Below are positions 3,815 to 16,495 of a stretch of DNA of 16,495 nucleotides, piece after piece. The notes below the pieces were generated by a model that saw nothing but the letters and a program-made list of their open reading frames with translations, ran no database searches and had not been told where the DNA came from. The DNA is taken from assembly GCA_041746575.1 (NCBI GenBank), contig JBGTGT010000009.1, positions 1 through 16,495 on the forward strand, read 5' to 3'. The stretch is from Microcystaceae cyanobacterium. Its GTDB lineage: Bacteria; Cyanobacteriota; Cyanobacteriia; Cyanobacteriales; Microcystaceae. The position numbers were made by a program, and so were the translations under genes. The stretch's first letter is position 1. Every line of letters starts with the position of its first letter.

Positions 3815-3848
3815 AGCAAATTAAGCTTAATTTGCTCTGATTTACTAT
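3815..3848 (+). promoter_or_regulatory. Candidate promoter/operator of the amidase cluster
   Basis: Perfect 22-bp palindrome AGCAAATTAAGCTTAATTTGCT (3815-3836) covers the -35 position of a TACTAT -10 hexamer (3843-3848). Confidence 0.5.
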
Positions 3849-3964: not shown

Positions 3965-5701
3965 GTGCTAAATTTGTTCAAACTTGCTAAACCAACTCTG
4001 GTTGTTACCCTGACCTCGGCCGTACTGCTCTCTTCGGCTCCTGATGTCCAAGCGGCAAAATTTAAGCTAGAAGAAGCGACAATTGCCGACATTAATACAG
4101 CTTTTGATGCCGGAATCTTAACCTCACAACAACTGGTGCGACTCTATCTCAATCGCATCGCCGCCTACGAAGATGGCGGTCCTCAACTGAATTCGATCAC
4201 TACCATCAACCCTAACGCACTAGAAACGGCAGCCGAATTAGATTTAGAGCGTCAGTTAACCGGGCCGAGGAGTCCTCTACACGGCATCCCTATCTTGCTC
4301 AAAGACAACATAGATACCTTCGATCTGCCCACCAGTAATGGCTCGGTCATTCTCAAAGATGCGATTCCCCCAGATGATGCCTACATCACTAAAGCCCTGC
4401 GGGATGCAGGAGCGATTATCTTAGGCAAGGCCGCCATGGGAGAGTTTGCCGGGGGTAGCTATAATACCATCGACGGACAAACCCTCAATCCCTATAACTT
4501 CAATCGCAATACTGGAGGTTCGAGCAGTGGTTCGGGTGCGGCTATCGCTGCTAACTTTGCTGTTCTTGCCATCGGCACGGATACAAGTACCTCTGTTCGC
4601 GGACCAGCGGCCTTTAATGGTATTGTCGGACTCCGGCCGACGACAGGACTGATTAGTCGAGATGGCATTGCCCCCAAAAATTTAACCTTCGATACGGCAG
4701 GGCCAATGGCTCGTACCGTAACCGACATGGCTCTTTTGCTCAACATCATTGCTGGGATCGATCCCAACGATCCGCTAACGCCAGACAGTGAAGACAAAAT
4801 CTCCGATGACTATACGCAGTTTCTGGTCAAAGGGTCTCTTCAAGGAGCGCGCTTGAGTATAGCACGGGACTTTTTTGGCGGCAATCCTGAAATTGATGCC
4901 TTAGCTGAAGTGGTAATCAGCAAGCTAGAAGAATTGGGGGCAGAGATTATCGACCCCGTTTTCTTCGATCCAGAGTTTATTGATTTTTACGTTCGTAACG
5001 GAGGCACAAATATCCGAAGAATTGCCGATTATCGCTTTAAAGAAGATTGGGAAGCCTATTTAGCTACCTTTGGACCCGACATTCCTAAGACGGTAGCAGA
5101 ATTTATTGAGATTTATGAAACAGAAGTCAATCAATCGCCACTTCCTGTCGAAAACAGTGTTCTCAACTTGCTCCGAAGAGCCGTCGCTACATCTACAGAC
5201 GATCCCGCTTATCAAAATTTGATCGAGAACGTCCTTCCAACAGCGACCGAGATCAAGCTCGCTCTCTTCGATGCCTACGATTTAGATGCGCTTGTCTTTC
5301 CTTACCAGAGCAATTTTGCCTCTCCCATTAACAATCCTGTTTACTCAATCGATGATCCGACCTTTACTTCTTACCCCGGCGTTCCTAATCCTGCAACGCT
5401 AGCAGGCTACAGTTCTGTTGGTTTTCCAGGGATCGTCGTCCCAATGGGCTTTGGTTCTCAGGGGTTGCCCATGACCCTCTCTTTCTTTGGGCGGCCTTAT
5501 GACGAAGGCAAGATTATTGGCTATGCCTATGACTACGAACAAGCAACCTTACATCGTCGTCCTTCACCTTTGCTAAGCCCCCTTCCTGGTGAGACATTGA
5601 CCGTACCTGAACCAGGTGCTGTTATTGGGTTAGGGATTTTTGGTCTTGTTGCTTTAGGCTCAAAACGCAAACTACAGCGTAATTCTAATCGATCCATATA
5701 A
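3965..5701 (+). CDS. Secreted amidase-signature (Ser-cisSer-Lys) family enzyme with C-terminal PEP-CTERM, copy 1
   Basis: Signal peptide ending VQA; LHGIPILLKDN, GGSSSGSGAA, GTDTSTSVRGPA; C-terminal VPEP, TM helix, KRK. The real start is more likely TTG at 3974, 8 nt after AGGAG. Confidence 0.92.
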   Translation: MLNLFKLAKPTLVVTLTSAVLLSSAPDVQAAKFKLEEATIADINTAFDAGILTSQQLVRLYLNRIAAYEDGGPQLNSITTINPNALETAAELDLERQLTGPRSPLHGIPILLKDNIDTFDLPTSNGSVILKDAIPPDDAYITKALRDAGAIILGKAAMGEFAGGSYNTIDGQTLNPYNFNRNTGGSSSGSGAAIAANFAVLAIGTDTSTSVRGPAAFNGIVGLRPTTGLISRDGIAPKNLTFDTAGPMARTVTDMALLLNIIAGIDPNDPLTPDSEDKISDDYTQFLVKGSLQGARLSIARDFFGGNPEIDALAEVVISKLEELGAEIIDPVFFDPEFIDFYVRNGGTNIRRIADYRFKEDWEAYLATFGPDIPKTVAEFIEIYETEVNQSPLPVENSVLNLLRRAVATSTDDPAYQNLIENVLPTATEIKLALFDAYDLDALVFPYQSNFASPINNPVYSIDDPTFTSYPGVPNPATLAGYSSVGFPGIVVPMGFGSQGLPMTLSFFGRPYDEGKIIGYAYDYEQATLHRRPSPLLSPLPGETLTVPEPGAVIGLGIFGLVALGSKRKLQRNSNRSI

Positions 5702-5735
5702 CCCCTAACCTAAATCTGAGAGTGAGAGATTAATT

Positions 5736-7445
5736 ATGATGTTGAAAACTTTACCGCAAACGGTTGTTTTAGCCGCTCTTCCTGCGTTATCTTGGGCATT
5801 GTTTCCTGAAAACGTTTTAGCCGTCACGTTTACACTGGAGGAAGCAACGGTTAGCAGTATCAATCAGGCTTTCGATCAAGGCATTTTAACGTCAGAAAGT
5901 TTGTTACAAATGTACCTCAACCGTGTTGAGAATTATGATGGGGTACTCAATTCTCTAATTACCGTCAATCCTAATGCCTTACAAGTAGCCAGAGAATTAG
6001 ATATCGAACGTCAAATGAGCGGACCGAGAAGCATTCTGCATGGCATTCCGATCATTTTAAAAGACAACTTTGACACCTTTGACTTGCCGACTACGGCTGG
6101 CTCGGCCGTACTCACAGGCTCTATTCCGCCTGATGATGCTTACATCGTGCGCCAACTGCGCGAAGCGGGGGCGATTGTTTTCGCTAAAGCCAATATGTCA
6201 GAGTTTGCGTCTGGCGTTCCCGGTGGTTCTTTAGTGGGACTCACGAGTAATCCTTATAATTTGGATCGCTCTCCTGCAGGTTCTAGTGGCGGCACGGGAG
6301 CGGCGATTGCGGCAAACTTTGGCGTTATTGGAACAGGTAGCGATACAGGTGGCTCAATTCGAGGTCCGGCGGCCGCTAATGGTCTCGTTGGTATTAAACC
6401 AACCCTGGGATTGACCAGCCGAGATGGAATTATTCCGCTCGCACTTTCCTTCGATGTTGGCGGACCTCTAACTCGGACAGTTGAAGATGCAGCGATCGCT
6501 CTGGGTTTCATGACGGGGATTGATCCAGCCGATCCTGCCACACTAGAAAGTGAGGGAAAATTTTTCAAAGACTACACGCCGTTCTTGAACACAAATGCTC
6601 TAGAAGGTGCGCGGATTGGGGTCGCTCGTGATTTTTTCGGTCGCAATGGTGAGGTTGATAGTCTCATTGAAGCCGCAATCACTAAAATGCAAGATTTAGG
6701 AGCAACGATTGTTGATCAGCTGTTTTATCCGTCAGAAGTTTTAACGGAAAAAGGCACTATCTATACACGAGTGAGATGGCCAGAGTTCAAGGCGCAAATA
6801 TCAGATTACTTAACCACTTTAGACGAGGGCTATCCCAGAGACTTAGCAGAAATCATTGCCTTAGCCGAAACCAATCCCTTTTTTGAACAATATCCTACTC
6901 GTTTGAATCTTTTCAGAAACGAACAAGCGAGTGCAGCTATCACTGATCCCGACTATCTTGATGCTTTGATTAATGGGAGGGCGTTTGTCAGAAATGCCGC
7001 CCTGAATCTGCTAGACAGTAACGACCTAGATGCCCTAATTTATCCCACCTCTGGATGTCCCGCCAGTCCACTACCAGGGTTAACAAACCCCAGCTATGTT
7101 TGTGGACCCGGTTTCTCACCGACGGATATTGCTAATATCTCCGGTTTTCCAGATATTCAAGTCCCTGCGGGTTTCACCTCTGACGGATTACCAGTAACCC
7201 TTTCTTTCTTCGGACGCGCTTTTAGTGATCCTGAACTGATTGGATATGCTTATGCCTACGAGCAAGCTACAATGCACCGACGTCCACCCAGCTTATTTGC
7301 TCCGCTTCCTGGTGAGTCCGTCAGTGTTCCTGAACCCAATCTATATATTGGTCTAGGTGTGATCGGTCTCTTGGGACTCAAGCGCCGAGGACAACGCAAC
7401 ACTAGCCGCAAGAACAAGCAGTGTGCATCTACAAACAATCATTAA
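5736..7445 (+). CDS. Secreted amidase-signature enzyme with PEP-CTERM, copy 2
   Basis: Signal peptide ending VLA; LHGIPIILKDN, AGSSGGTGAA, GSDTGGSIRGPA; VPEPNLYIGLGVIGLLGLKRR. Confidence 0.93.
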   Translation: MMLKTLPQTVVLAALPALSWALFPENVLAVTFTLEEATVSSINQAFDQGILTSESLLQMYLNRVENYDGVLNSLITVNPNALQVARELDIERQMSGPRSILHGIPIILKDNFDTFDLPTTAGSAVLTGSIPPDDAYIVRQLREAGAIVFAKANMSEFASGVPGGSLVGLTSNPYNLDRSPAGSSGGTGAAIAANFGVIGTGSDTGGSIRGPAAANGLVGIKPTLGLTSRDGIIPLALSFDVGGPLTRTVEDAAIALGFMTGIDPADPATLESEGKFFKDYTPFLNTNALEGARIGVARDFFGRNGEVDSLIEAAITKMQDLGATIVDQLFYPSEVLTEKGTIYTRVRWPEFKAQISDYLTTLDEGYPRDLAEIIALAETNPFFEQYPTRLNLFRNEQASAAITDPDYLDALINGRAFVRNAALNLLDSNDLDALIYPTSGCPASPLPGLTNPSYVCGPGFSPTDIANISGFPDIQVPAGFTSDGLPVTLSFFGRAFSDPELIGYAYAYEQATMHRRPPSLFAPLPGESVSVPEPNLYIGLGVIGLLGLKRRGQRNTSRKNKQCASTNNH

Positions 7446-7483
7446 TTGAGTGTCCTGAGAGGGATATATTTTCCCTATTTCCT

Positions 7484-7505
7484 TAACCCCTAACCCCTAA
7501 CCTAA
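7484..7505 (+). repeat. Short heptamer repeat (TAACCCC)2TAACCTAA; shorter copy at 5699-5713
   Basis: The same motif precedes amidase copy 2 (one unit) and copy 3 (two units). Confidence 0.7.
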
Positions 7506-7521
7506 TCTGGAGATTGATCTG

Positions 7522-9237
7522 ATGTTGAAAAATTTACCGCAAACGGCCGTTTTAGCTACCTTTTCTGCTTTATCTTTCGCCTTGCTACCTGAAAACGTTT
7601 TAGCTGTCACGTTTAAACTGGAGGAAGCAACAGTTAGCAGTATCAATCAGGCTTTTGATCAAAATATTCTCACGTCAGAAAAGTTAGTGAACATGTATTT
7701 AAACCGTGTTGAGAATTATGATGGGTTCCTCAATTCCTTAATTACAGTCAATCCTGCTGCCTTACAAATAGCCAGAGATTTAGATATCGAACGTCAAGTT
7801 AGCGGACCAAGAAGTATCTTGCATGGTATTCCCATCATTTTAAAAGACAACTTCGACACCTTTGACTTGCCGACTACGGCTGGCTCAGTAACCCTTATAG
7901 ACTCTATTCCGCCTGATGATGCTTATCTCGTGCGACAATTACGGGAGGCGGGGGCGATCATCTTTGCGAAGGCCAACATGGACGAATGGGCGCATGGTGG
8001 GGGAGGTTCATACAGTTCGGTTATCGGACGAACCTTCAACCCGTATGACTTCAATCGGCTGCCTGCGGGGTCGAGCGGTGGGCCAGGAGCATCTATTGCG
8101 GCGAATTTCGGAGTGATTGGCTTTGGTAGTGACACTGGAGGTTCGATTCGCGGTCCAGCGGCAGCAAATGGATTAGTGGGGATTAAGCCCACTTTGGGCT
8201 TGACGAGTCGAGATGGCATTGTTCCCTTTTCTCTAACGCTGGATACGGGAGGTCCGCTAACGAGAACCGTGACGGATGCTGCCATTGCTCTCGGCTTCAT
8301 GACGGGGATCGATCCTAATGATCCTGCCACCCTTGACAGTGAAGGGAAATTTTATCAAGACTATACTCAATTCTTGACTCCAAACGCACTTGAAGGCGCA
8401 CGGATTGGGGTTGCCAGAGATTTCTTTGGCAGAAATGCTGAGGTTGATGGAGCGATTGAGCAAGCGATCGCTAATATTCAGGCATTAGGAGCAACGATTG
8501 TGGATTCGATTACTTTTCCAACAGATGTCCTGGCGGCTCGTGGCAATATCTACAGTACAGTTTCTGATACAGAGTTTAAGTATCAAATTGCCGACTATTT
8601 AGCAACCTTGTCGCCTGATTATCCCAAAACCTTGGCTGAAGTCATTGCCATTAGCGAGTCGCCAGAAGTGGTTAATTCTCAATTTCCGGTTAGTCCAGTC
8701 GTTTTAGCCCGTCTCTACGAGGCAGAAGTGAGAGAACCCTTAGACAATCCCGAATATTTAGATGCCTTAATTAATGGCAGAGCTTTAATTACTAACACAA
8801 CCCTAAGTATCTTAGAAGCCAACGATCTTGATGCTTTGATTTATCCCACCTCCGGCTGTCCAGCGGGGCCTCGTCCTGGGTTTATCGATCCTAACTATGT
8901 CTGTGCGCCTGGTACTTCAGCAACGAATATCGCTAATCTCACTGGGTTGCCCGACATACAGGTTCCGGCAGGATTTACCGACGATGGACTGCCTATCGCC
9001 TTATCCTTCTTTGGACGAGCTTATAGCGAACCTGATCTGATTGGATATGCTTATGCTTACGAGCAAGCGACACTTCATCGTCGTCCTTCTTCTCTGTTGC
9101 CTCCGCTTCCCGGTGAGACAACTTCCGTACCCGAACCTAGTGCTGTCATTGGGTTAGGGATTTTCGGTCTTGCCGCTTTAGGCTTGAAGCGCAAACCACA
9201 GCTTAACGCTATTAGTCGTTTGGCTCGTCGAAGCTAG
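7522..9237 (+). CDS. Secreted amidase-signature enzyme with PEP-CTERM, copy 3
   Basis: Signal peptide ending VLA; LHGIPIILKDN, AGSSGGPGAS, GSDTGGSIRGPA; VPEPSAVIGLGIFGLAALGLKRK. Confidence 0.93.
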   Translation: MLKNLPQTAVLATFSALSFALLPENVLAVTFKLEEATVSSINQAFDQNILTSEKLVNMYLNRVENYDGFLNSLITVNPAALQIARDLDIERQVSGPRSILHGIPIILKDNFDTFDLPTTAGSVTLIDSIPPDDAYLVRQLREAGAIIFAKANMDEWAHGGGGSYSSVIGRTFNPYDFNRLPAGSSGGPGASIAANFGVIGFGSDTGGSIRGPAAANGLVGIKPTLGLTSRDGIVPFSLTLDTGGPLTRTVTDAAIALGFMTGIDPNDPATLDSEGKFYQDYTQFLTPNALEGARIGVARDFFGRNAEVDGAIEQAIANIQALGATIVDSITFPTDVLAARGNIYSTVSDTEFKYQIADYLATLSPDYPKTLAEVIAISESPEVVNSQFPVSPVVLARLYEAEVREPLDNPEYLDALINGRALITNTTLSILEANDLDALIYPTSGCPAGPRPGFIDPNYVCAPGTSATNIANLTGLPDIQVPAGFTDDGLPIALSFFGRAYSEPDLIGYAYAYEQATLHRRPSSLLPPLPGETTSVPEPSAVIGLGIFGLAALGLKRKPQLNAISRLARRS

Positions 9238-10071: not shown

Positions 10072-10387
10072 TATGCAACTCTTGATCCGTCTATTGGTTC
10101 AGAAATCGCTAAACGCCGTCCTGTTTTGATTGTTAGCAATGATATTAACAACCAAGCAGCCACAAAGCGCGATCAGTGTGCCGATTACCTCTAATGTGAC
10201 CAAAGTGTACTCATTTGAGGTTTTCTTAAAACCATCAGATAGTGGTTTATCAAAACCTTCCAAAGTACAAGCACAGCAAATTAGAACAATTTCTAAAAAG
10301 CGGATAAGTGGTCAATGTCAAGGGAGGCCAAAAGAAGATTTAATGCAGTTAGTGGAATCAGCTATTAGACTGCGCCTTGCTATATAA
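10072..10387 (+). pseudogene. mazF: MazF/PemK-family toxin, 5'-truncated and frameshifted
   Basis: Frame from 10072: YATLDPSIGSEIAKRRPVLIVSNDINNQAA. After a shift near 10165-10180: VPITSNVTKVYSFEVFL...GLSKPSKVQAQQIRTISKKRI. No start codon or antitoxin present. Confidence 0.88.
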
Positions 10388-10564
10388 GAAGCTTGGGATT
10401 AAATTCAAAAACTTTTCAACTCTCATCCCCAAAAATCACTCCTCCAAAATCTCTTCTCGCTGCAAGCGCGCCGCAGACGACTCCGAACTCAGGTTTCATA
10501 TCAACGGAAGTCAAGACTCTGCCAGAAGTCCACCCTAATCAGTTCGCACATTTTGAGATTTTAA

Positions 10565-10582
10565 GTTACAAAAGTTAATAAA
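10565..10582 (+). promoter_or_regulatory. HLR1-like repeat upstream of cruF
   Basis: GTTACAAA-AG-TTAATAAA: first half-site perfect, second 6/8. Confidence 0.45.
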
Positions 10583-10627
10583 GATGTGTCAACTTTTGAT
10601 TAACCCAACAATTTTGAGGGCAAAAAA

Positions 10628-11539
10628 TTGGTATTGATAAGTACATTAGTTCGCTTTGAGCGCATTTTTTTAGTGGGTCATATTCTTTCGATGGCTTTTG
10701 GGCTAGCTGGACTGCTGTTAGTGTTGCCCCATCCTGATTTCGTCGCTAATCTGCCAACCCTAGGTAAAATCGCCTTTAGTTGGTCGATGGCAGGAGGCGG
10801 TGTCATCTATATGCTTTTGGGAACGGCTGCAGTAGCGGTTTATGCTTACCGAACATTAGGACTCTGGCACTGCTTAGGTTTCATGCTTCCCTCTATTAGC
10901 ATTTCCCTAGGAAGTGAGTTATTAGGAACCAGCACAGGCTTTCCCTTCGGTCATTATCGCTATCTGACGGGATTAGGATATAAGATTGCTGGGTTAGTTC
11001 CCTTTACGATTCCTCTGTCTTGGTTTTATTTAGGATTTAGTGCTTATATCATTTCTCGTGCTGGTTTAGAGCAGCATCCGCATACTAAGCGACAATTATT
11101 GAGCATAATCTTGCTAGGTGCCATTCTATTAACTTCTTGGGATTTCGTTCTCGACCCAGCTATGACCCAAACGACAATGCCTTTTTGGATTTGGGAACAG
11201 CCAGGTGCTTTCTTCGGGATGCCCTATCAGAATTTTGCTGGCTGGTTGGGAACGGGAGTTATCTTCATGACAGTAGCAACACTGATTTGGAAAGTCAAAC
11301 CGGTGATTTTACCTCGCACTCAATTAAGCTTGCCTTTAGCCATCTATCTCAGTAATTTTGCTTTCGCCACCATTATGAGCATTGCGGCGGGAATTTATCC
11401 TTCAATTTTGTTGGGAATCGTTCTAGGATTAATTCCCGCTTTAGTCCTTTATAAAATGGCAATATCTCAGATAGACGCAATTGATCGAACCTCTTTCGAC
11501 TCAGAAAAAGCAGATTTAGCAGCAGCGAAATTACTCTAA
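10628..11539 (+). CDS. cruF: Carotenoid 1'-hydroxylase/1,2-hydratase CruF (myxoxanthophyll pathway)
   Basis: Polytopic membrane protein with GHILSMAFGLAGLLLV, SELLGTSTGFPFGHYRY, VPFTIPLSWFY, WDFVLDPAM, FFGMPYQNFAGW; adjacent to cruG. Confidence 0.9.
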   Translation: MVLISTLVRFERIFLVGHILSMAFGLAGLLLVLPHPDFVANLPTLGKIAFSWSMAGGGVIYMLLGTAAVAVYAYRTLGLWHCLGFMLPSISISLGSELLGTSTGFPFGHYRYLTGLGYKIAGLVPFTIPLSWFYLGFSAYIISRAGLEQHPHTKRQLLSIILLGAILLTSWDFVLDPAMTQTTMPFWIWEQPGAFFGMPYQNFAGWLGTGVIFMTVATLIWKVKPVILPRTQLSLPLAIYLSNFAFATIMSIAAGIYPSILLGIVLGLIPALVLYKMAISQIDAIDRTSFDSEKADLAAAKLL

Positions 11540-11561
11540 CAACTTCAGGAGCGATATTTAA

Positions 11562-12779
11562 GTGAATTGGCTGGCTGGATTACCTTTTCAGACGATCTTA
11601 GGAGCGTTTTCTTTGGGACTATTAGGATTTCAAGGAACGGCAACCCTAATCTTGCTATCTCGTCTGATTAAAGGTGCTAACCGTTGTCCTCCCCTTACTC
11701 CCGGCCACTTATCCCCCGAAAGGCGAGGAATCGTTAGTGTTATCGTTCCTACTCTCAATGAAGCCGAACGGATTGACCCTTGTCTTATCAGTTTAAGCCA
11801 GCAGGGTGAAGAGGTACGGGAATTCATTGTCGTTGATAGTAACTCTCAAGATGGCACGCAAGAACGGATTAAAGCGGTTGCACGCAGAGATCCTCGCTTT
11901 CGCCTCATTACCGACGATCCTTTGCCGTTGGGGTGGATAGGTCGTCCTTGGGCATTACAGACCGGATTTTTACATAGTTCTCCCGACAGTGAATGGATTT
12001 TGGGGATTGATGCTGATACTCAACTGCAACCGAAATTAGTCGCCAGTCTTATCGCTGTTGCCCAAGAAGGAGGGTATGATATCTTGTCACTCTCACCTCA
12101 ATTTATTTTGAAATATCCGGGGGAATGGTGGTTGCAACCAGCGTTGCTGATGACGCTTTTATATCGTTTCGATAGTGCAGGTGTGACAGGACAGCTACCA
12201 GAACAGGTTATGGCTAACGGTCAATGTTTTCTATCTCGCCGTTCGGTGTTGGATCGGTTGGATGGTTATAATCGTGCGGCAGGTTCTTTCTGCGATGACG
12301 TTACCTTGGCTCGTTATGCAGCAAGGCAGGGGTTTAAAGTGGGATTCCTCGATGGGGCAAAACTGCTGCGAGTGAGGATGTACGAGGGAATGAAAGAAAC
12401 TTGGCGAGAGTGGGGACGATCGCTCGATCTTAAAGATGCTTCTAGCAAGGCTCAACTGTGGGGAGATTTAGCTTTGCTAGGATTGACCCAAGCCCTACCT
12501 TTACCCGCCTTAATCTTACTGAGCAGTAGTTTGAGTTTCTGGGATCTCTTTTTGACATTGAAGTTAGCGATCTCTCTCAATGTATTTTTACTCTTTATCC
12601 GTTTCGCTTTGCTGTGGGCGATTAGTCCTTCTTACTATCGCAACGAGCAATCTGCATCTGCATCGTGGCTATTTTGGTTATCTCCTCTCGCTGACCCGTT
12701 GGCGGTTTTGAGAATCTTTCTATCTGCACGACAACAACCTAAACAGTGGCGGGGAAGGATTTACCAAAGCTGCAAGTAA
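11562..12779 (+). CDS. cruG: GT2 carotenoid 2'-O-glycosyltransferase CruG
   Basis: VSVIVPTLNEA, VVDSNSQDGT, GWIGRPWAL, GIDADT, MANGQC, SFCDDVTLAR, VRMYEG..ETWREWGRSLDLKDA, WRGRIY; 22 nt downstream of cruF. Confidence 0.9.
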   Translation: MNWLAGLPFQTILGAFSLGLLGFQGTATLILLSRLIKGANRCPPLTPGHLSPERRGIVSVIVPTLNEAERIDPCLISLSQQGEEVREFIVVDSNSQDGTQERIKAVARRDPRFRLITDDPLPLGWIGRPWALQTGFLHSSPDSEWILGIDADTQLQPKLVASLIAVAQEGGYDILSLSPQFILKYPGEWWLQPALLMTLLYRFDSAGVTGQLPEQVMANGQCFLSRRSVLDRLDGYNRAAGSFCDDVTLARYAARQGFKVGFLDGAKLLRVRMYEGMKETWREWGRSLDLKDASSKAQLWGDLALLGLTQALPLPALILLSSSLSFWDLFLTLKLAISLNVFLLFIRFALLWAISPSYYRNEQSASASWLFWLSPLADPLAVLRIFLSARQQPKQWRGRIYQSCK

Positions 12780-12854
12780 TTATCAATTCATAAACTGGCG
12801 GGGAGAATTCCCGAATTTGGTGAATTATAATCGTTTTGTGGAGCGGTAGCTTGC

Positions 12855-12921
12855 GTAGGGTGGGTTAGGGGGTAGCTATCTGTGATACTGATGAGTTATT
12901 AAATATCCACCGTAACCCACC
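12855..12921 (+). repeat. GTAG-type REP-like palindromic element
   Basis: GTAG tetranucleotide followed by GGTGGGTTA (12859-12867), whose exact inverse TAACCCACC is at 12913-12921. Confidence 0.6.
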
Positions 12922-12966
12922 AACCATAAGTCTTTGAGAGGTCTTAAGATTTACTTTATAAATACC

Positions 12967-13372
12967 CTCTAAATCTTCAATTATACTGATAAAGTTACTA
13001 TGACTTTCCCCCTATAAACTATCTGCTAATACTCTTTTGATTTTAAATCCTCTTTCTTTTAGTTCCTTAACTATTTCTATAGCGATTTCTGGCTTGGTTT
13101 TATATTTATCCCCTTTCCAGGGTGATTCCGTTAAGAAATGTAGTAATCCCTGCTCATTTTTTAACCCGACTAACTTGGCGATCTCAGGCAAACTTTTCCT
13201 TTTTATATCATTGATTATTCCTAACTGAAGATATTTAAACGATTCATAAGCTCTAACTTCTACAAATAAATCTCTATAGAGTTCACAGTAAGTATCAACA
13301 CATTTTACCGTCATTTGAGGAGGGAGAGGCTTAACCCTAGTCTCTGTCTGATTTTTAGACTTTTTTCTTCAT
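12967..13372 (-). pseudogene. IS701-family transposase remnant
   Basis: TVKCVDTYCELYRDLFVEVRAYESFKYLQLGII..KRKSLPEIAK..LLHFLTESPW is fused (internal deletion near 13116) to KYKTKPEIAIEI..VLADSL*GESHSNFISII. It has a premature TAG, and the upstream ATG at 13372 is out of frame. Confidence 0.85.
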
Positions 13373-13382
13373 TGTACCTCTC

Positions 13383-13616
13383 CTAGAGTGATGAAAGAGG
13401 GATAACTAGCTTGTCTTCATGCCAACCAATATTCTTCTCCCAAACCTGTGGCTGAGAATCATATCTAAGCTCATAAACTTTAGCATTCGTTAACTCTTCT
13501 AATCGAATATATTCCAAATAAGCCTCGAAAATGGCTTTAATTTTCTCCCAATTTAAGGAGGGTTCGGAAGCATCGAGAGACGAAGTTAGGTTAGGGGATC
13601 TTTCAAGATCAAACAT
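13383..13616 (-). CDS. Hypothetical protein, 77 aa, possibly the N-terminus of a longer truncated gene
   Basis: AGGA RBS and ATG. The stop falls in a CTAG about 10 nt from the IS701 remnant. No family recognised. Confidence 0.45.
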   Translation of the reverse strand: MFDLERSPNLTSSLDASEPSLNWEKIKAIFEAYLEYIRLEELTNAKVYELRYDSQPQVWEKNIGWHEDKLVIPLSSL

Positions 13617-13750
13617 TTAGTCCTATCACTCTTCACTTTAATTCAGGAATTTCTGTCAACAGGAATTTGAGTTGACAGCCTTTTTCACTATCGTAGCGAA
13701 GCCTCAGTGATTTGGATAAAATTGTTATTGGAGAGTTTGAGAGTCTCTTA

Positions 13751-13770
13751 TACCCGTAACGTTACGGGTA
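13751..13770. other. Candidate parS centromere site, downstream of parB
   Basis: Perfect 20-bp palindrome TACCCGTAACGTTACGGGTA about 140 nt beyond the parB stop; duplicated inside parB. Confidence 0.75.
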
Positions 13771-13911
13771 ACAAAATCAGTCAATCCTTTTCAATTCAAC
13801 CTAAATCTTTTCCTCAATATGACAAAATATTTTTAACCCGTCAGACAAGTTAGGAGAAGCATTAACAATCATAGGAGAATGATCTTCTATTTCTAAAAAC
13901 CGTTATTAAAA

Positions 13912-14859
13912 TTACTCATCCCCTTGAACTAAAGCTTCCAATTGACCTAATAACTGTTCTAATTGAGATCGCTTGTCGGGATCATCCCAGATTTTTTGTT
14001 GGGTAATTTGTTGATAAGCGACTTTCAATCGTTGAGGAAATCCATTAGCGTTTGAGGGGGATTCGGGTTGAGCAGTTAAGACACGAATTCTTTCTCGAAT
14101 ATCACTCAAGGAAAGATCCTCTGAAATCGCTTCAGTGAGAATTTGCTGACGAATTTCTTCATCCTTCACTCGACCAATAATGGTCGCTTTGGTATAAGCG
14201 ATTTTTCCTTCTCTCAGGGCAGTCAAAATGTCTTCGGGCAATTTTAGCAAGGGTAAGCGATTTCTGACAAAGGACTCCCATTTGGTATGACCTAAACTGT
14301 CAAAAACGGCTTCTACTTGTTCTTTGATTTCATTACCCGTAACGTTACGGGTAACTTTGCCTTTGGCTTCGTTTTGCAGTTTATATAGTAGGGAAGTGAC
14401 TTCTTCAAGGGAATAATTAAGCTGAATGGAGAGTAATTGCAGTATCCCTTCTGTTTCTTCAACGGGGTTGAGGTCTTCGCGTTGGAGATTTTCAATTAAG
14501 GCTAATTGCCATGCCTGTTCATCGGCTAAGTCACGAATAATAACAGGAACTTCGGTTAATTGGGCTTGGGTAGCGGCTCGATAACGTCTTTCCCCGGCCA
14601 CTAATTCATATCCCCCTTTGTCTCTCGGACGAACTAACAAGGGTTGTAAAATGCCGTGTTGTTGAATGGAACTGACTAATTCGGCTAGGGCTTGGGGATC
14701 AAAGTAACGGCGCGGTTGTTGGGAGGGTAAATGAATATCTTGGATAAAGATGAAAGCATCATTCTCTTGGCTTGTTTGTTGGGTTAAAGGGGTTAAGGGT
14801 TCAGCCCAAGGTGCGCCTATGGTACTTTGTAAGGGTTGATTTCGTTTACGAGAGGGCAT
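13912..14859 (-). CDS. parB: ParB/RepB/Spo0J-family partition protein (CTPase)
   Basis: QPRRYFD, SIQQHGILQPLLVRP, YELVAGERRYRA, LIENLQREDLNPVEE, RLPLLKLP; 3 nt downstream of parA. Confidence 0.96.
   Translation of the reverse strand: MPSRKRNQPLQSTIGAPWAEPLTPLTQQTSQENDAFIFIQDIHLPSQQPRRYFDPQALAELVSSIQQHGILQPLLVRPRDKGGYELVAGERRYRAATQAQLTEVPVIIRDLADEQAWQLALIENLQREDLNPVEETEGILQLLSIQLNYSLEEVTSLLYKLQNEAKGKVTRNVTGNEIKEQVEAVFDSLGHTKWESFVRNRLPLLKLPEDILTALREGKIAYTKATIIGRVKDEEIRQQILTEAISEDLSLSDIRERIRVLTAQPESPSNANGFPQRLKVAYQQITQQKIWDDPDKRSQLEQLLGQLEALVQGDE
14333..14354. other. Candidate parS site inside the parB coding sequence
   Basis: Perfect 22-bp palindrome TTACCCGTAACGTTACGGGTAA encoding VTRNVTGN; 14334-14355 is identical to 13751-13772. 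Confidence 0.75.
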
Positions 14860-14862
14860 AAT

Positions 14863-15624
14863 TTATAATTTCTCCATTGCTGTTGCTAAGGCTTCTAAAA
14901 CGGAAACCGCCGGATGTTTAGCGGAATAAACGGCTAAGGGGGCGCGTTCTTCGGTGGCATCGACAAAAGCGGTTGAACGGGCAACAGGGGCAAAGACTTG
15001 TCCAAAGACTTCGAGTTGGGACTGAATGGCGGCTAAGGTTCGGACATCGGCTGAGTTACGACTATCAAAACGGGTGGGAACAAATCCAGCAATTTCCAGT
15101 TGGCGATTGATTTTATTTTGCACTCTGACAACGGTTTGAAGCAGTTCGTTCGTCCCTTCAAAGGCTTTGAGGTGAGTTTCAATGGGGACAAGAACATGAG
15201 TCGCAGCAACCAGAGAGATGTAGGATAATAAGCCTAAACTGGGGGGACAATCAATCAAAATATAGTCGTATTGGTCTTCTATTCCTTCAATGGCTTCTTT
15301 GAGTCGTAATTCTCTTAAGTCGGCGTTGACTAACTGCATTTCTGCCCCACTTAATATACGGTTAGCAGGAACGATATCCATGCCATGAATATTAGCGTGA
15401 ATGGGGAGGGGTTGTTCGTCGATAATGGCATCAGCAATGGTTTTATCAAGTTGATTGGGCATTAACCCCATAAATTTCGATAAAGAGGCTTGAGGGTCCA
15501 TGTCAATTAGCAAGACACGGTGTTGTTTAAAGGCTAGGTGATAGCCGATATTTTGGGTGAGGGTTGATTTGGCAACGCCTCCGGCTTGGTTAAATAGGGC
15601 AATAATTCGTATGGATTTTGACAT
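14863..15624 (-). CDS. parA: ParA/Soj-family partition ATPase
   Basis: FNQAGGVAKST (deviant Walker A), VLLIDMDPQAS, YDYILIDCPPSLG; in an operon with parB. Confidence 0.96.
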   Translation of the reverse strand: MSKSIRIIALFNQAGGVAKSTLTQNIGYHLAFKQHRVLLIDMDPQASLSKFMGLMPNQLDKTIADAIIDEQPLPIHANIHGMDIVPANRILSGAEMQLVNADLRELRLKEAIEGIEDQYDYILIDCPPSLGLLSYISLVAATHVLVPIETHLKAFEGTNELLQTVVRVQNKINRQLEIAGFVPTRFDSRNSADVRTLAAIQSQLEVFGQVFAPVARSTAFVDATEERAPLAVYSAKHPAVSVLEALATAMEKL

Positions 15625-15871
15625 TCATTGACGGGGGAACTCGTTGGTTATCAGATGACGATTTCTTAAAGACTGACCTTGGCGGTTTCTGGGTTTTAGT
15701 ATAACTATAACGAACGGATTCTTTTTCAGGAAGTTTCAAAACCTCATGATGAAGTCTTTACGCTTTGTAAGCGATCGCTATCTTACTCAATTTGCATCTC
15801 ACAGCCAACTTAATCTAACGAATAATACCATGTTTTTTAAAAATAATATGAGGCAAAACGACAGGCAAACT

Positions 15872-16261
15872 TTATGAACAGCGTAAATCTAGATCATCAA
15901 CGTTTGGATTGCCATAGGGAGGCTGGTCATCTGGCACAAGCCAGTACACAATATAAATGTTTTGATTTGAAAAACTTGTAGATTTAATAGGCCATTGGGA
16001 CAAATCATCTAGTCCGTAAGGAATCTGTTGACTGAATTTTCCATTTATAGCGAAGTCCACAGATACAGGTTTTTCCTCATAAAAAGAACTGATTTCTGAT
16101 TGACTGCCAGAATATTGTCTAATTTCTCCCAAAAAGTAGAAACAATTCCCACCGTTACCGGGTGGATTTCTGACATAGCCAAGCAAGCTTATTAATAGTA
16201 GGATAACTGAAACGGGAATACCGAGGAAAGTTAAGAATAAATAGGTTGCTATCTTTTTCAT
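15872..16261 (-). CDS. Hypothetical protein with an N-terminal membrane anchor
   Basis: MKKIATYLFLTFLGIPVSVILLLISLLGYVR followed by a soluble domain with two Cys; ATG at 16261 preferred over TTG at 16270. Confidence 0.6.
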   Translation of the reverse strand: MKKIATYLFLTFLGIPVSVILLLISLLGYVRNPPGNGGNCFYFLGEIRQYSGSQSEISSFYEEKPVSVDFAINGKFSQQIPYGLDDLSQWPIKSTSFSNQNIYIVYWLVPDDQPPYGNPNVDDLDLRCS

Positions 16262-16355
16262 GTTTTTCAAGACTGGCGTTTAAACTGAGCAGAAGAGTAC
16301 GCCTTTTGGATTAGCCCATATATAAATGTTCATAAATATGAGATTGCCTAACTCT

Positions 16356-16495
16356 GGTTCTGTTGCAAAAAATTTTAAGGGTACAAGTATCCTATATCAA
16401 TCTAACTTTTTAAGCAGCCATTTCAAAGAGAGACTCAACAAATTCTTTTTGAGACACACTGCCCCTATTATTGACACCTTCTACCTGACCTTTAT
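16356..16495 (-). mobile_element. IS6-family element, right end (IRR and transposase end), runs off the right edge
   Basis: GGTTCTGTTGCAAAAA at 16356-16371 is the inverse of 122-137. Confidence 0.9.
16410..16495 (-). CDS. IS6-family transposase, C-terminus only (partial)
   Basis: KGQVEGVNNRGSVSQKEFVESLFEMAA*, resembling the IS6 end (RKGQ...FIxxLFGxAA). Not in the ORF track. Confidence 0.8.
   Translation of the reverse strand, partial: KGQVEGVNNRGSVSQKEFVESLFEMAA

Follow-up and report, generated by a model that had tools for sequence, protein, structure and literature searches.

The window, which is the whole stretch of DNA analysed here, is the entire contig C9 (16,495 nucleotides) of a 4.2-Mb genome assigned to Microcystaceae. 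Two adjacent genes for partition proteins, parA (14863–15624) and parB (13912–14859), are located on the minus strand, with parA directly upstream. parB encodes a 315-aa ParB/Spo0J CTPase-type protein and is the only match to this protein in the genome. It is assigned to Pfam ParB_N (PF02195) and HTH_ParB (PF17762) and to TIGR00180 above the cut-off, and its best fold matches are ParB, Noc, Spo0J, and KorB. The ParB_N domain with its GxxR arginine patch, the HTH DNA-binding domain, and the C-terminal helical domain are all present. The CTP-binding arginine patch is GERRYR (residues 89–94; 14578–14595, minus strand), and its G89, R91, and R92 are invariant among 88 aligned homologs. Alignment with chromosomal Spo0J shows an insertion of about 34 aa within the HTH region, longer than the 25 aa or so given in the original prediction. 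In the structural model (mean pLDDT 89.9), helices 151–165 and 176–189 flank a coil of residues 166–175 (14335–14364, minus strand), here called the loop. The loop is modelled at pLDDT 89–95, and its N172 and V173 are conserved in >90% of homologs. The recognition helix comes after it at residues 194–206 (14242–14280, minus strand), with the codons of V198, R199, and N200 at 14260–14268.

parA encodes a 253-aa Walker-box ATPase. Its AAA_31 domain begins at residue 6, and hence the N-terminal HTH of the classical P1/F-like type Ia proteins is absent. In the Walker A motif, located at 15560–15600, Ala replaces the signature Lys of the deviant Walker A. Of the 121 parsed ParA proteins of the family, 120 have Ala, Ser, or Cys at this position. 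A like substitution of the signature Lys is found in the carboxysome positioner McdA.

Two copies of a palindromic sequence are associated with parB. The 22 bases at 13751–13772 are identical to those at 14334–14355, exactly as predicted. The former copy is intergenic, 140 bp beyond the parB stop codon, and includes a perfect 20-bp palindrome (13751–13770). The latter is inside parB, where a perfect 22-bp palindrome does exist, although it corresponds to 14333–14354, one base to the left of the predicted position. It is translated as V169-T-R-N-V-T-G-N176, as had been read originally, and its centre falls between Asn172 and Val173. No other palindrome of ≥12 bp is present in the window parB. 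Across the 4.2-Mb genome, the 18-bp core is confined to the intergenic and the genic copy, with no third match even when up to three mismatches are allowed. Perfect palindromes of ≥22 bp are seen six times in the genome, so the length alone is not distinctive. One of similar length, an AT-rich 22-bp palindrome with the core AAGCTT, is at 3815–3836 of the window, about 130 bp 5' of the first amidase gene described below. What goes beyond chance is the exact second copy together with the family-wide pattern, rather than a 22-bp palindrome by itself. The best genome match to the chromosomal parS consensus TGTTNCACGTGAAACA has two mismatches and is on another contig.

The remaining genes of the window bear on the nature of the replicon. 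The only copies of cruF and cruG in the genome, genes of the myxoxanthophyll pathway, are at 10628–12779, 1.1 kb from parB, with IS remnants between. As the contig holds these sole copies, the parAB copy of the window may be chromosomal or on a megaplasmid. In several near-complete relatives, cruG is on the large first contig. cruF/cruG and parAB are joined on single contigs of two sequencing runs that could be the source of the assembly; these contigs span 10282–16384 without any difference but, coming from possible source runs, are not independent support. Many of the homologs are on complete plasmids, and several are on multi-megabase contigs. Further upstream in the window, at 3965–9237, three tandem amidase-family genes carry C-terminal VPEP motifs, which we take to resemble PEP-CTERM sorting signals.

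Homologous loci were collected by genome searches, which gave a match in 70 of 401 and in 168 of 401 genomes, and by a plasmid search. Up to about 7 kb per side was taken for 180 regions: 100 represent the best 100 of the 125 matches listed in the first genome search, and the remaining 80 the best 80 of the 150 matches listed in the second search (146 further matches lay beyond that list). These were supplemented with the window locus, a pair of named plasmids, and two loci from a related-locus search of genomes. The related-locus search returned mostly chromosomal Spo0J, and these two loci were its only family members. The resulting 185 loci contain 191 ORF hits. Dropping 15 ORFs that are partial or without the ENL motif leaves 176, and 8 more fail the helix pattern, leaving 168. 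The set is biased to close homologs, and kin among them are not independent.

A perfect 18-bp palindrome is present in 125 of the 168 loops, while 28 have one mispair, 9 have two, and 6 have three or more. Synonymous recoding with the codon use of each gene is expected to give 1.17 perfect palindromes, and windows of equal size downstream of the loop contain one in 168, so the predicted excess over a codon-based control is borne out. The pairing of the two arms is 93–100% at pairs 1–10, 64% at pair 11, and 37% at pair 12, and falls to background by pair 13. The perfect sites have 39 spellings, 38 of which have the core AACGTT. The prediction that the loop varies around a central Asn-Val while its DNA is always palindromic is correct for the large majority (0 or 1 mispair in 153 of 168), although "always" does not hold, as 9 of the 176 genes fail. 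The loop Asn codon is AAC in 195 of 213 cases and the Val codon is GTT in 204 of 213, compared with 38% and 35%, respectively, elsewhere in the same genes. This excess indicates that the constraint acts on DNA. The dyad is maintained across the family by selection at the DNA level.

The centre of the palindrome lies between two codons in 161 of 162 genes, in one and the same frame. It was considered whether stop codons force this frame. Of the 43 spellings, 35 close the second frame, but 40 leave the third one open; the common frame thus reflects descent. In the distant members L150, L156, and L153, the core is altered to AGCGCT (Ser-Ala) or ATCGAT (Ile-Asp), with the frame and the central CG kept. 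Two to eight copies of the site are found in 34 of the 168 loops, with loop lengths increased by as much as about 135 residues. The parB genes of L134, L143, L145, L057, L155, and L157 have expanded the site in tandem and in frame, to as many as 8 copies. The loop of L145 alternates between the spellings THNVMG and ITNVTG.

Copies of the site outside the loop were also surveyed. Matching extragenic copies, expected by the original prediction, are present at 25 of the 125 loci when one mismatch is allowed, and are therefore a minority feature; about 3 of these 25 are parB fragments or second parB genes. An exact outside copy of the locus's own site is found at 22 of 125 loci, where 0.09 would be expected for unrelated spellings. 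Among the loci with 5 kb available on both sides, 14 of 69 have outside copies. Most outside copies are downstream, far from promoters. At three loci, a copy is within 250 bp 5' of parA, and at others a copy is at a similar distance where parA was unmatched. In L088, twelve outside copies are located 3' of parB, and the first eight listed show a regular 211-bp spacing. All parB genes of 12 complete plasmid records contain the site, and in 6 of the 12 it is the sole copy within two mismatches. The spelling of the window's site recurs on T. variabilis plasmid B. L156 has a genic palindrome unlike its upstream array of seven, and in L106 the outside site has another spelling. Outside palindromes spelled unlike that of the resident parB are also seen at L271:26269 and L279:5046; these are perhaps remnants of a replaced parB allele.

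The genic site has been lost in 9 of 176 genes. A family-type palindrome is present outside the loop in 7 of these 9, compared with 34 of the 159 intact genes (Fisher p 8e-4, a value overstated by kinship). The clearest example is a plasmid ParB of PCC 7822, which has lost half of the loop (VTRNEEDS), while its helix VRNRL is like that of the window protein. In the 39,250 of 47,550 bases of this plasmid that were covered, the window's site occurs three times outside the gene as a perfect copy. L124 and L132, whose loops still show decayed remains of the site, have no outside site within about 7 kb.

Sequence comparison between sites and recognition helices reveals a strong correspondence. Residue 200, which aligns with the conserved Asn of the Spo0J recognition helix, fits the base beside the core in 124 of the 125 genes with perfect sites, although the code was derived from the same 125 genes that it scores. 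Asn is found with T (82 genes), Ser, Thr, Lys, or Ala with A (37), and His with C (5); the single exception is L203, with Asn and C. Outside the genes from which the code was derived, it fits 35 of 36 imperfect genic sites, all six Thermaceae genes (4 helix/site types), and all seven loci with outside sites alone, that is, the genes whose sites have been relocated. L127 is a further exception. Sites outside the loop fit residue 200 in 75 of 76 cases, though many of these copy the genic spelling and hence are not independent.

Based on 75 distinct site/helix pairs, the mutual information (MI) between residue 200 and the base next to the core has a z of 27.7. R199 is linked with the next base (z 8.4) and V198 with the fourth base (z 11.0). 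The other residues among 177–240, including 177–199 nearer the site, show z ≤ 4.8 for the first base. An IQ-TREE phylogeny built without the loop and the helix shows 15 changes in the base, 14 in the residue class, and 15 in the pair. All seven independent pairs agree (p 0.016), and for the split between T and Asn, 5.9 of 6 pairs agree (p 0.03). The links of residues 198 and 199 are not significant on this tree (p 0.125). In an earlier, underpowered test with FastTree, the supported pairs agreed in 5 of 5 (p 0.06) and in 3 of 3 cases (p 0.25). N178 of Caulobacter ParB contacts parS (PMC7383237), and residue 200 could be considered its counterpart. In the window protein, Glu and Thr align with Arg173 and Gly201 (Caulobacter numbering), which are conserved in chromosomal ParB. 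The site and the residue that would read it are 81 nt apart, so specificity could move as one short block.

Based on the helix covariation and on the presence of fitting sites elsewhere at most loci that have lost the genic one, the palindrome is very probably the cognate parS of the ParB encoded by the same gene. The window locus has a Walker ParA, the ParB domains, and an allele-specific palindromic cis site, as in type Ia ParABS. 14333–14354 and 13751–13772 can then be regarded as an intragenic and an intergenic candidate parS. The two recognition helices of a ParB dimer would read both arms of an 18–22-bp dyad, N6-AACGTT-N6 plus 1–2 outer pairs. The core-adjacent base would be read by residue 200 (Asn-T, Ser/Thr/Ala/Lys-A, or His-C), and bases farther out probably by residues 198–199. 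From what is established for ParABS systems, we infer that ParB bound to the candidate site loads and closes with CTP and then spreads, and that ParA moves it, so that the replicon is segregated. The loop peptide would be a passenger, a tolerated translation of the site. For roughly half of the complete plasmids examined, the gene itself might be the sole centromere, while the window has one extra copy.

Other explanations were weighed against this one. ParB could bind the palindrome chiefly as an operator, silencing parAB by roadblock or spreading like KorB or VirB, with segregation secondary. The position of the site inside a transcribed gene suits such a role, as do the copies within 250 bp upstream of parA at three loci and those at other loci with parA unmatched, but the downstream position of most outside copies does not, and where the genic site is lost, outside sites occur anywhere nearby. 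A partition role might be doubted where parB stands without an adjacent parA match (42 of 157 homologous parB genes) or, as may be true of the window contig, on a chromosome; yet a parA match is directly upstream in 115 of 157, and the G[EH]RR motif is kept in 170 of 176 family ParBs. In the window, no copy of the site is present at the parA promoter, and a promoter scan gave 7 sites where 5.2 are expected by chance. The operator as the chief role is therefore judged improbable. The two roles are nevertheless compatible with each other, and autoregulation is possible, given the copies just 5' of parA at three loci. It was also speculated in the original prediction that the loop peptide itself affects recognition, in which case the peptide would help to read the site that encodes it. 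The location of the loop within the HTH region, its confident model, and the conservation of N172 and V173 are in line with this. However, seven proteins without the loop motif adjoin outside sites that fit their helix, loops can grow by >130 residues and up to 8 site copies, and the AAC and GTT bias points to a constraint on DNA. We regard this idea as very improbable. Because the helix covaries with the site and relocated sites fit the helix, it is likely the helix, rather than the loop peptide, that reads the palindrome.

Finally, the symmetry could arise from template-switch repair, an RNA hairpin, or the site of another protein, with the helix covariation due to linkage over 81 nt. The site and the helix are indeed near enough to recombine as one block, but the residues between them show no covariation, and outside copies matched to the allele have unrelated flanks, with an exact copy at 22 of 125 loci against the 0.09 expected for unrelated spellings. 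On the plus strand, the copy in the gene is scored as a terminator-like stem; yet mispairs of the G-T type (9 of 44) are fewer than those of A-C (17), which gives no G-U bias, and no Rfam match was obtained, so the RNA hairpin was rejected. Altogether this family of explanations has hardly any likelihood left. It can be speculated, however, that template switching helps both arms to change jointly.

If the palindrome is the cognate parS, a broader scenario can be proposed, to which we give slightly more credence than doubt. The ParB lineage of cyanobacteria and Thermaceae would have fused a centromere and its reader into a coding cassette of about 100 bp. The gene would often be the only centromere of its replicon, and parS arrays would grow by in-frame expansion of the loop. 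The code would cover at least 39 naturally occurring ParB/parS pairs, many of which would be orthogonal to one another, and the true main parS of the Thermus megaplasmid pTT27 would be the loop site instead of the published 14-mer, a prediction that contradicts the published assignment of parSm. The code between base and residue makes many candidate centromere sequences predictable from the gene alone, including those of model strains (pCC7120epsilon and plasmids B and D of T. variabilis, for example). The evolution of specificity could be studied on dozens of naturally occurring protein-DNA pairs with single base-residue differences, a much larger set than ParB and Noc offer. The pairs could also serve as orthogonal labels for loci and in stable vectors for cyanobacteria. 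Deletion or codon optimisation of parB would remove the centromere too. The suggestion that incompatibility groups can likewise be read from the gene is not supported: identical sites are found in 3 of 86 co-resident pairs, against a permutation mean of 1.9 (P(≤obs) 0.88), in a weak test that counted the fetched loci alone. In one genome (G059), the same site is found on three contigs.

The closest known system is that of Thermus thermophilus HB27. On its megaplasmid pTT27, a 14-bp parSm was reported as the bound site inside parBm (Li et al. 2015, PMC4409726). According to the same report, parBm alone gives ParBm foci in E. coli, from which the gene was concluded to contain its own binding site, and the homologous operon stabilises a replicon; the EMSA in the accessible text is on the 14-mer only. 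Thermus ParBm and the window ParB belong to one subfamily, with 41% identity and the same insertion, loop length, and SF-x-x-x-RLPLL helix, whereas ParAm has an N-terminal HTH that is absent from the window ParA. The published parSm is at codon ~221, past the helix. It is seen in 3 of 6 Thermaceae genes and is absent from the window parB. A family-type loop palindrome, in contrast, is present in all 6 Thermaceae genes checked and fits the residue-200 code. In HB27 it is translated as RDNVVP, 184 bp before parSm, with one mispair, and the His of the helix fits its C; the two sites are at L274:4169–4186 and 4353–4370. No mention of it was found in the accessible text of PMC4409726. The foci in E. 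coli are explicable by the loop site or the 14-mer alike.

Deinococcus relatives are 34–39% identical to the window ParB and have most of the insertion and the helix in common. ParB2 and ParB3 of Deinococcus secondary replicons are reported to bind elements upstream of parAB (PMC7671480). In three Deinococcus genes, exactly the 9 residues that carry the site are missing and the loop is not palindromic, while candidate dyads are present outside the gene; one of these has the inner arm of the window's site and is beside an Arg-Asn helix. In the Deinococcus plasmids L280–L282, paired 18–20-bp dyads near parAB have T where the Asn helix predicts it and are candidate parS sites. An Aliarcobacter relative has a loop of equal length without a palindrome, so the 9 residues may have been either gained or lost. 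In Burkholderiales, replicon-specific parS sites are known from outside parB, unlike the loop sites here. Families of palindromic parS spellings are paired there with the ParBs of plasmids and secondary chromosomes (PMC7022226). The mRNA structure described at the 5' end of Caulobacter parB (PMC13371061) is unrelated. In a literature search that covered few of the subscription journals, no published account of a cyanobacterial plasmid parS, the loop position, or the code was found.

Intragenic parS as such is already known. In Bacillus subtilis, a parS is located within spo0J, and in the Firmicute Spo0J genes L005 and L007, the consensus parS is translated as NVSRET. Chromosomal Spo0J likewise combines the ParB fold, the CTP motif, and a palindrome translated in the protein. 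Its parS is one fixed 16-bp consensus after the HTH domain, whereas the sites here are variable, 18–22 bp long with at least 39 spellings, and are inside an HTH insertion. In the TENVSR and TENVFR alleles (L109, L111, and L114), the right half of the site resembles a half-site of chromosomal parS; one may speculate that parS halves look as if placed tail to tail. The novelty would lie in a ParABS centromere that forms part of a parB loop and whose specificity can be read as a code. In the specificity switch between ParB and Noc, the choice of 16-bp palindrome depends on a handful of residues in the helix (Jalal et al. 2020, PMC7383237). The switching residues in that system are 173, 179, 184, and 201, with N178 conserved, whereas in the present family the main variation is at the position that corresponds to N178 in the alignment, across dozens of natural pairs.
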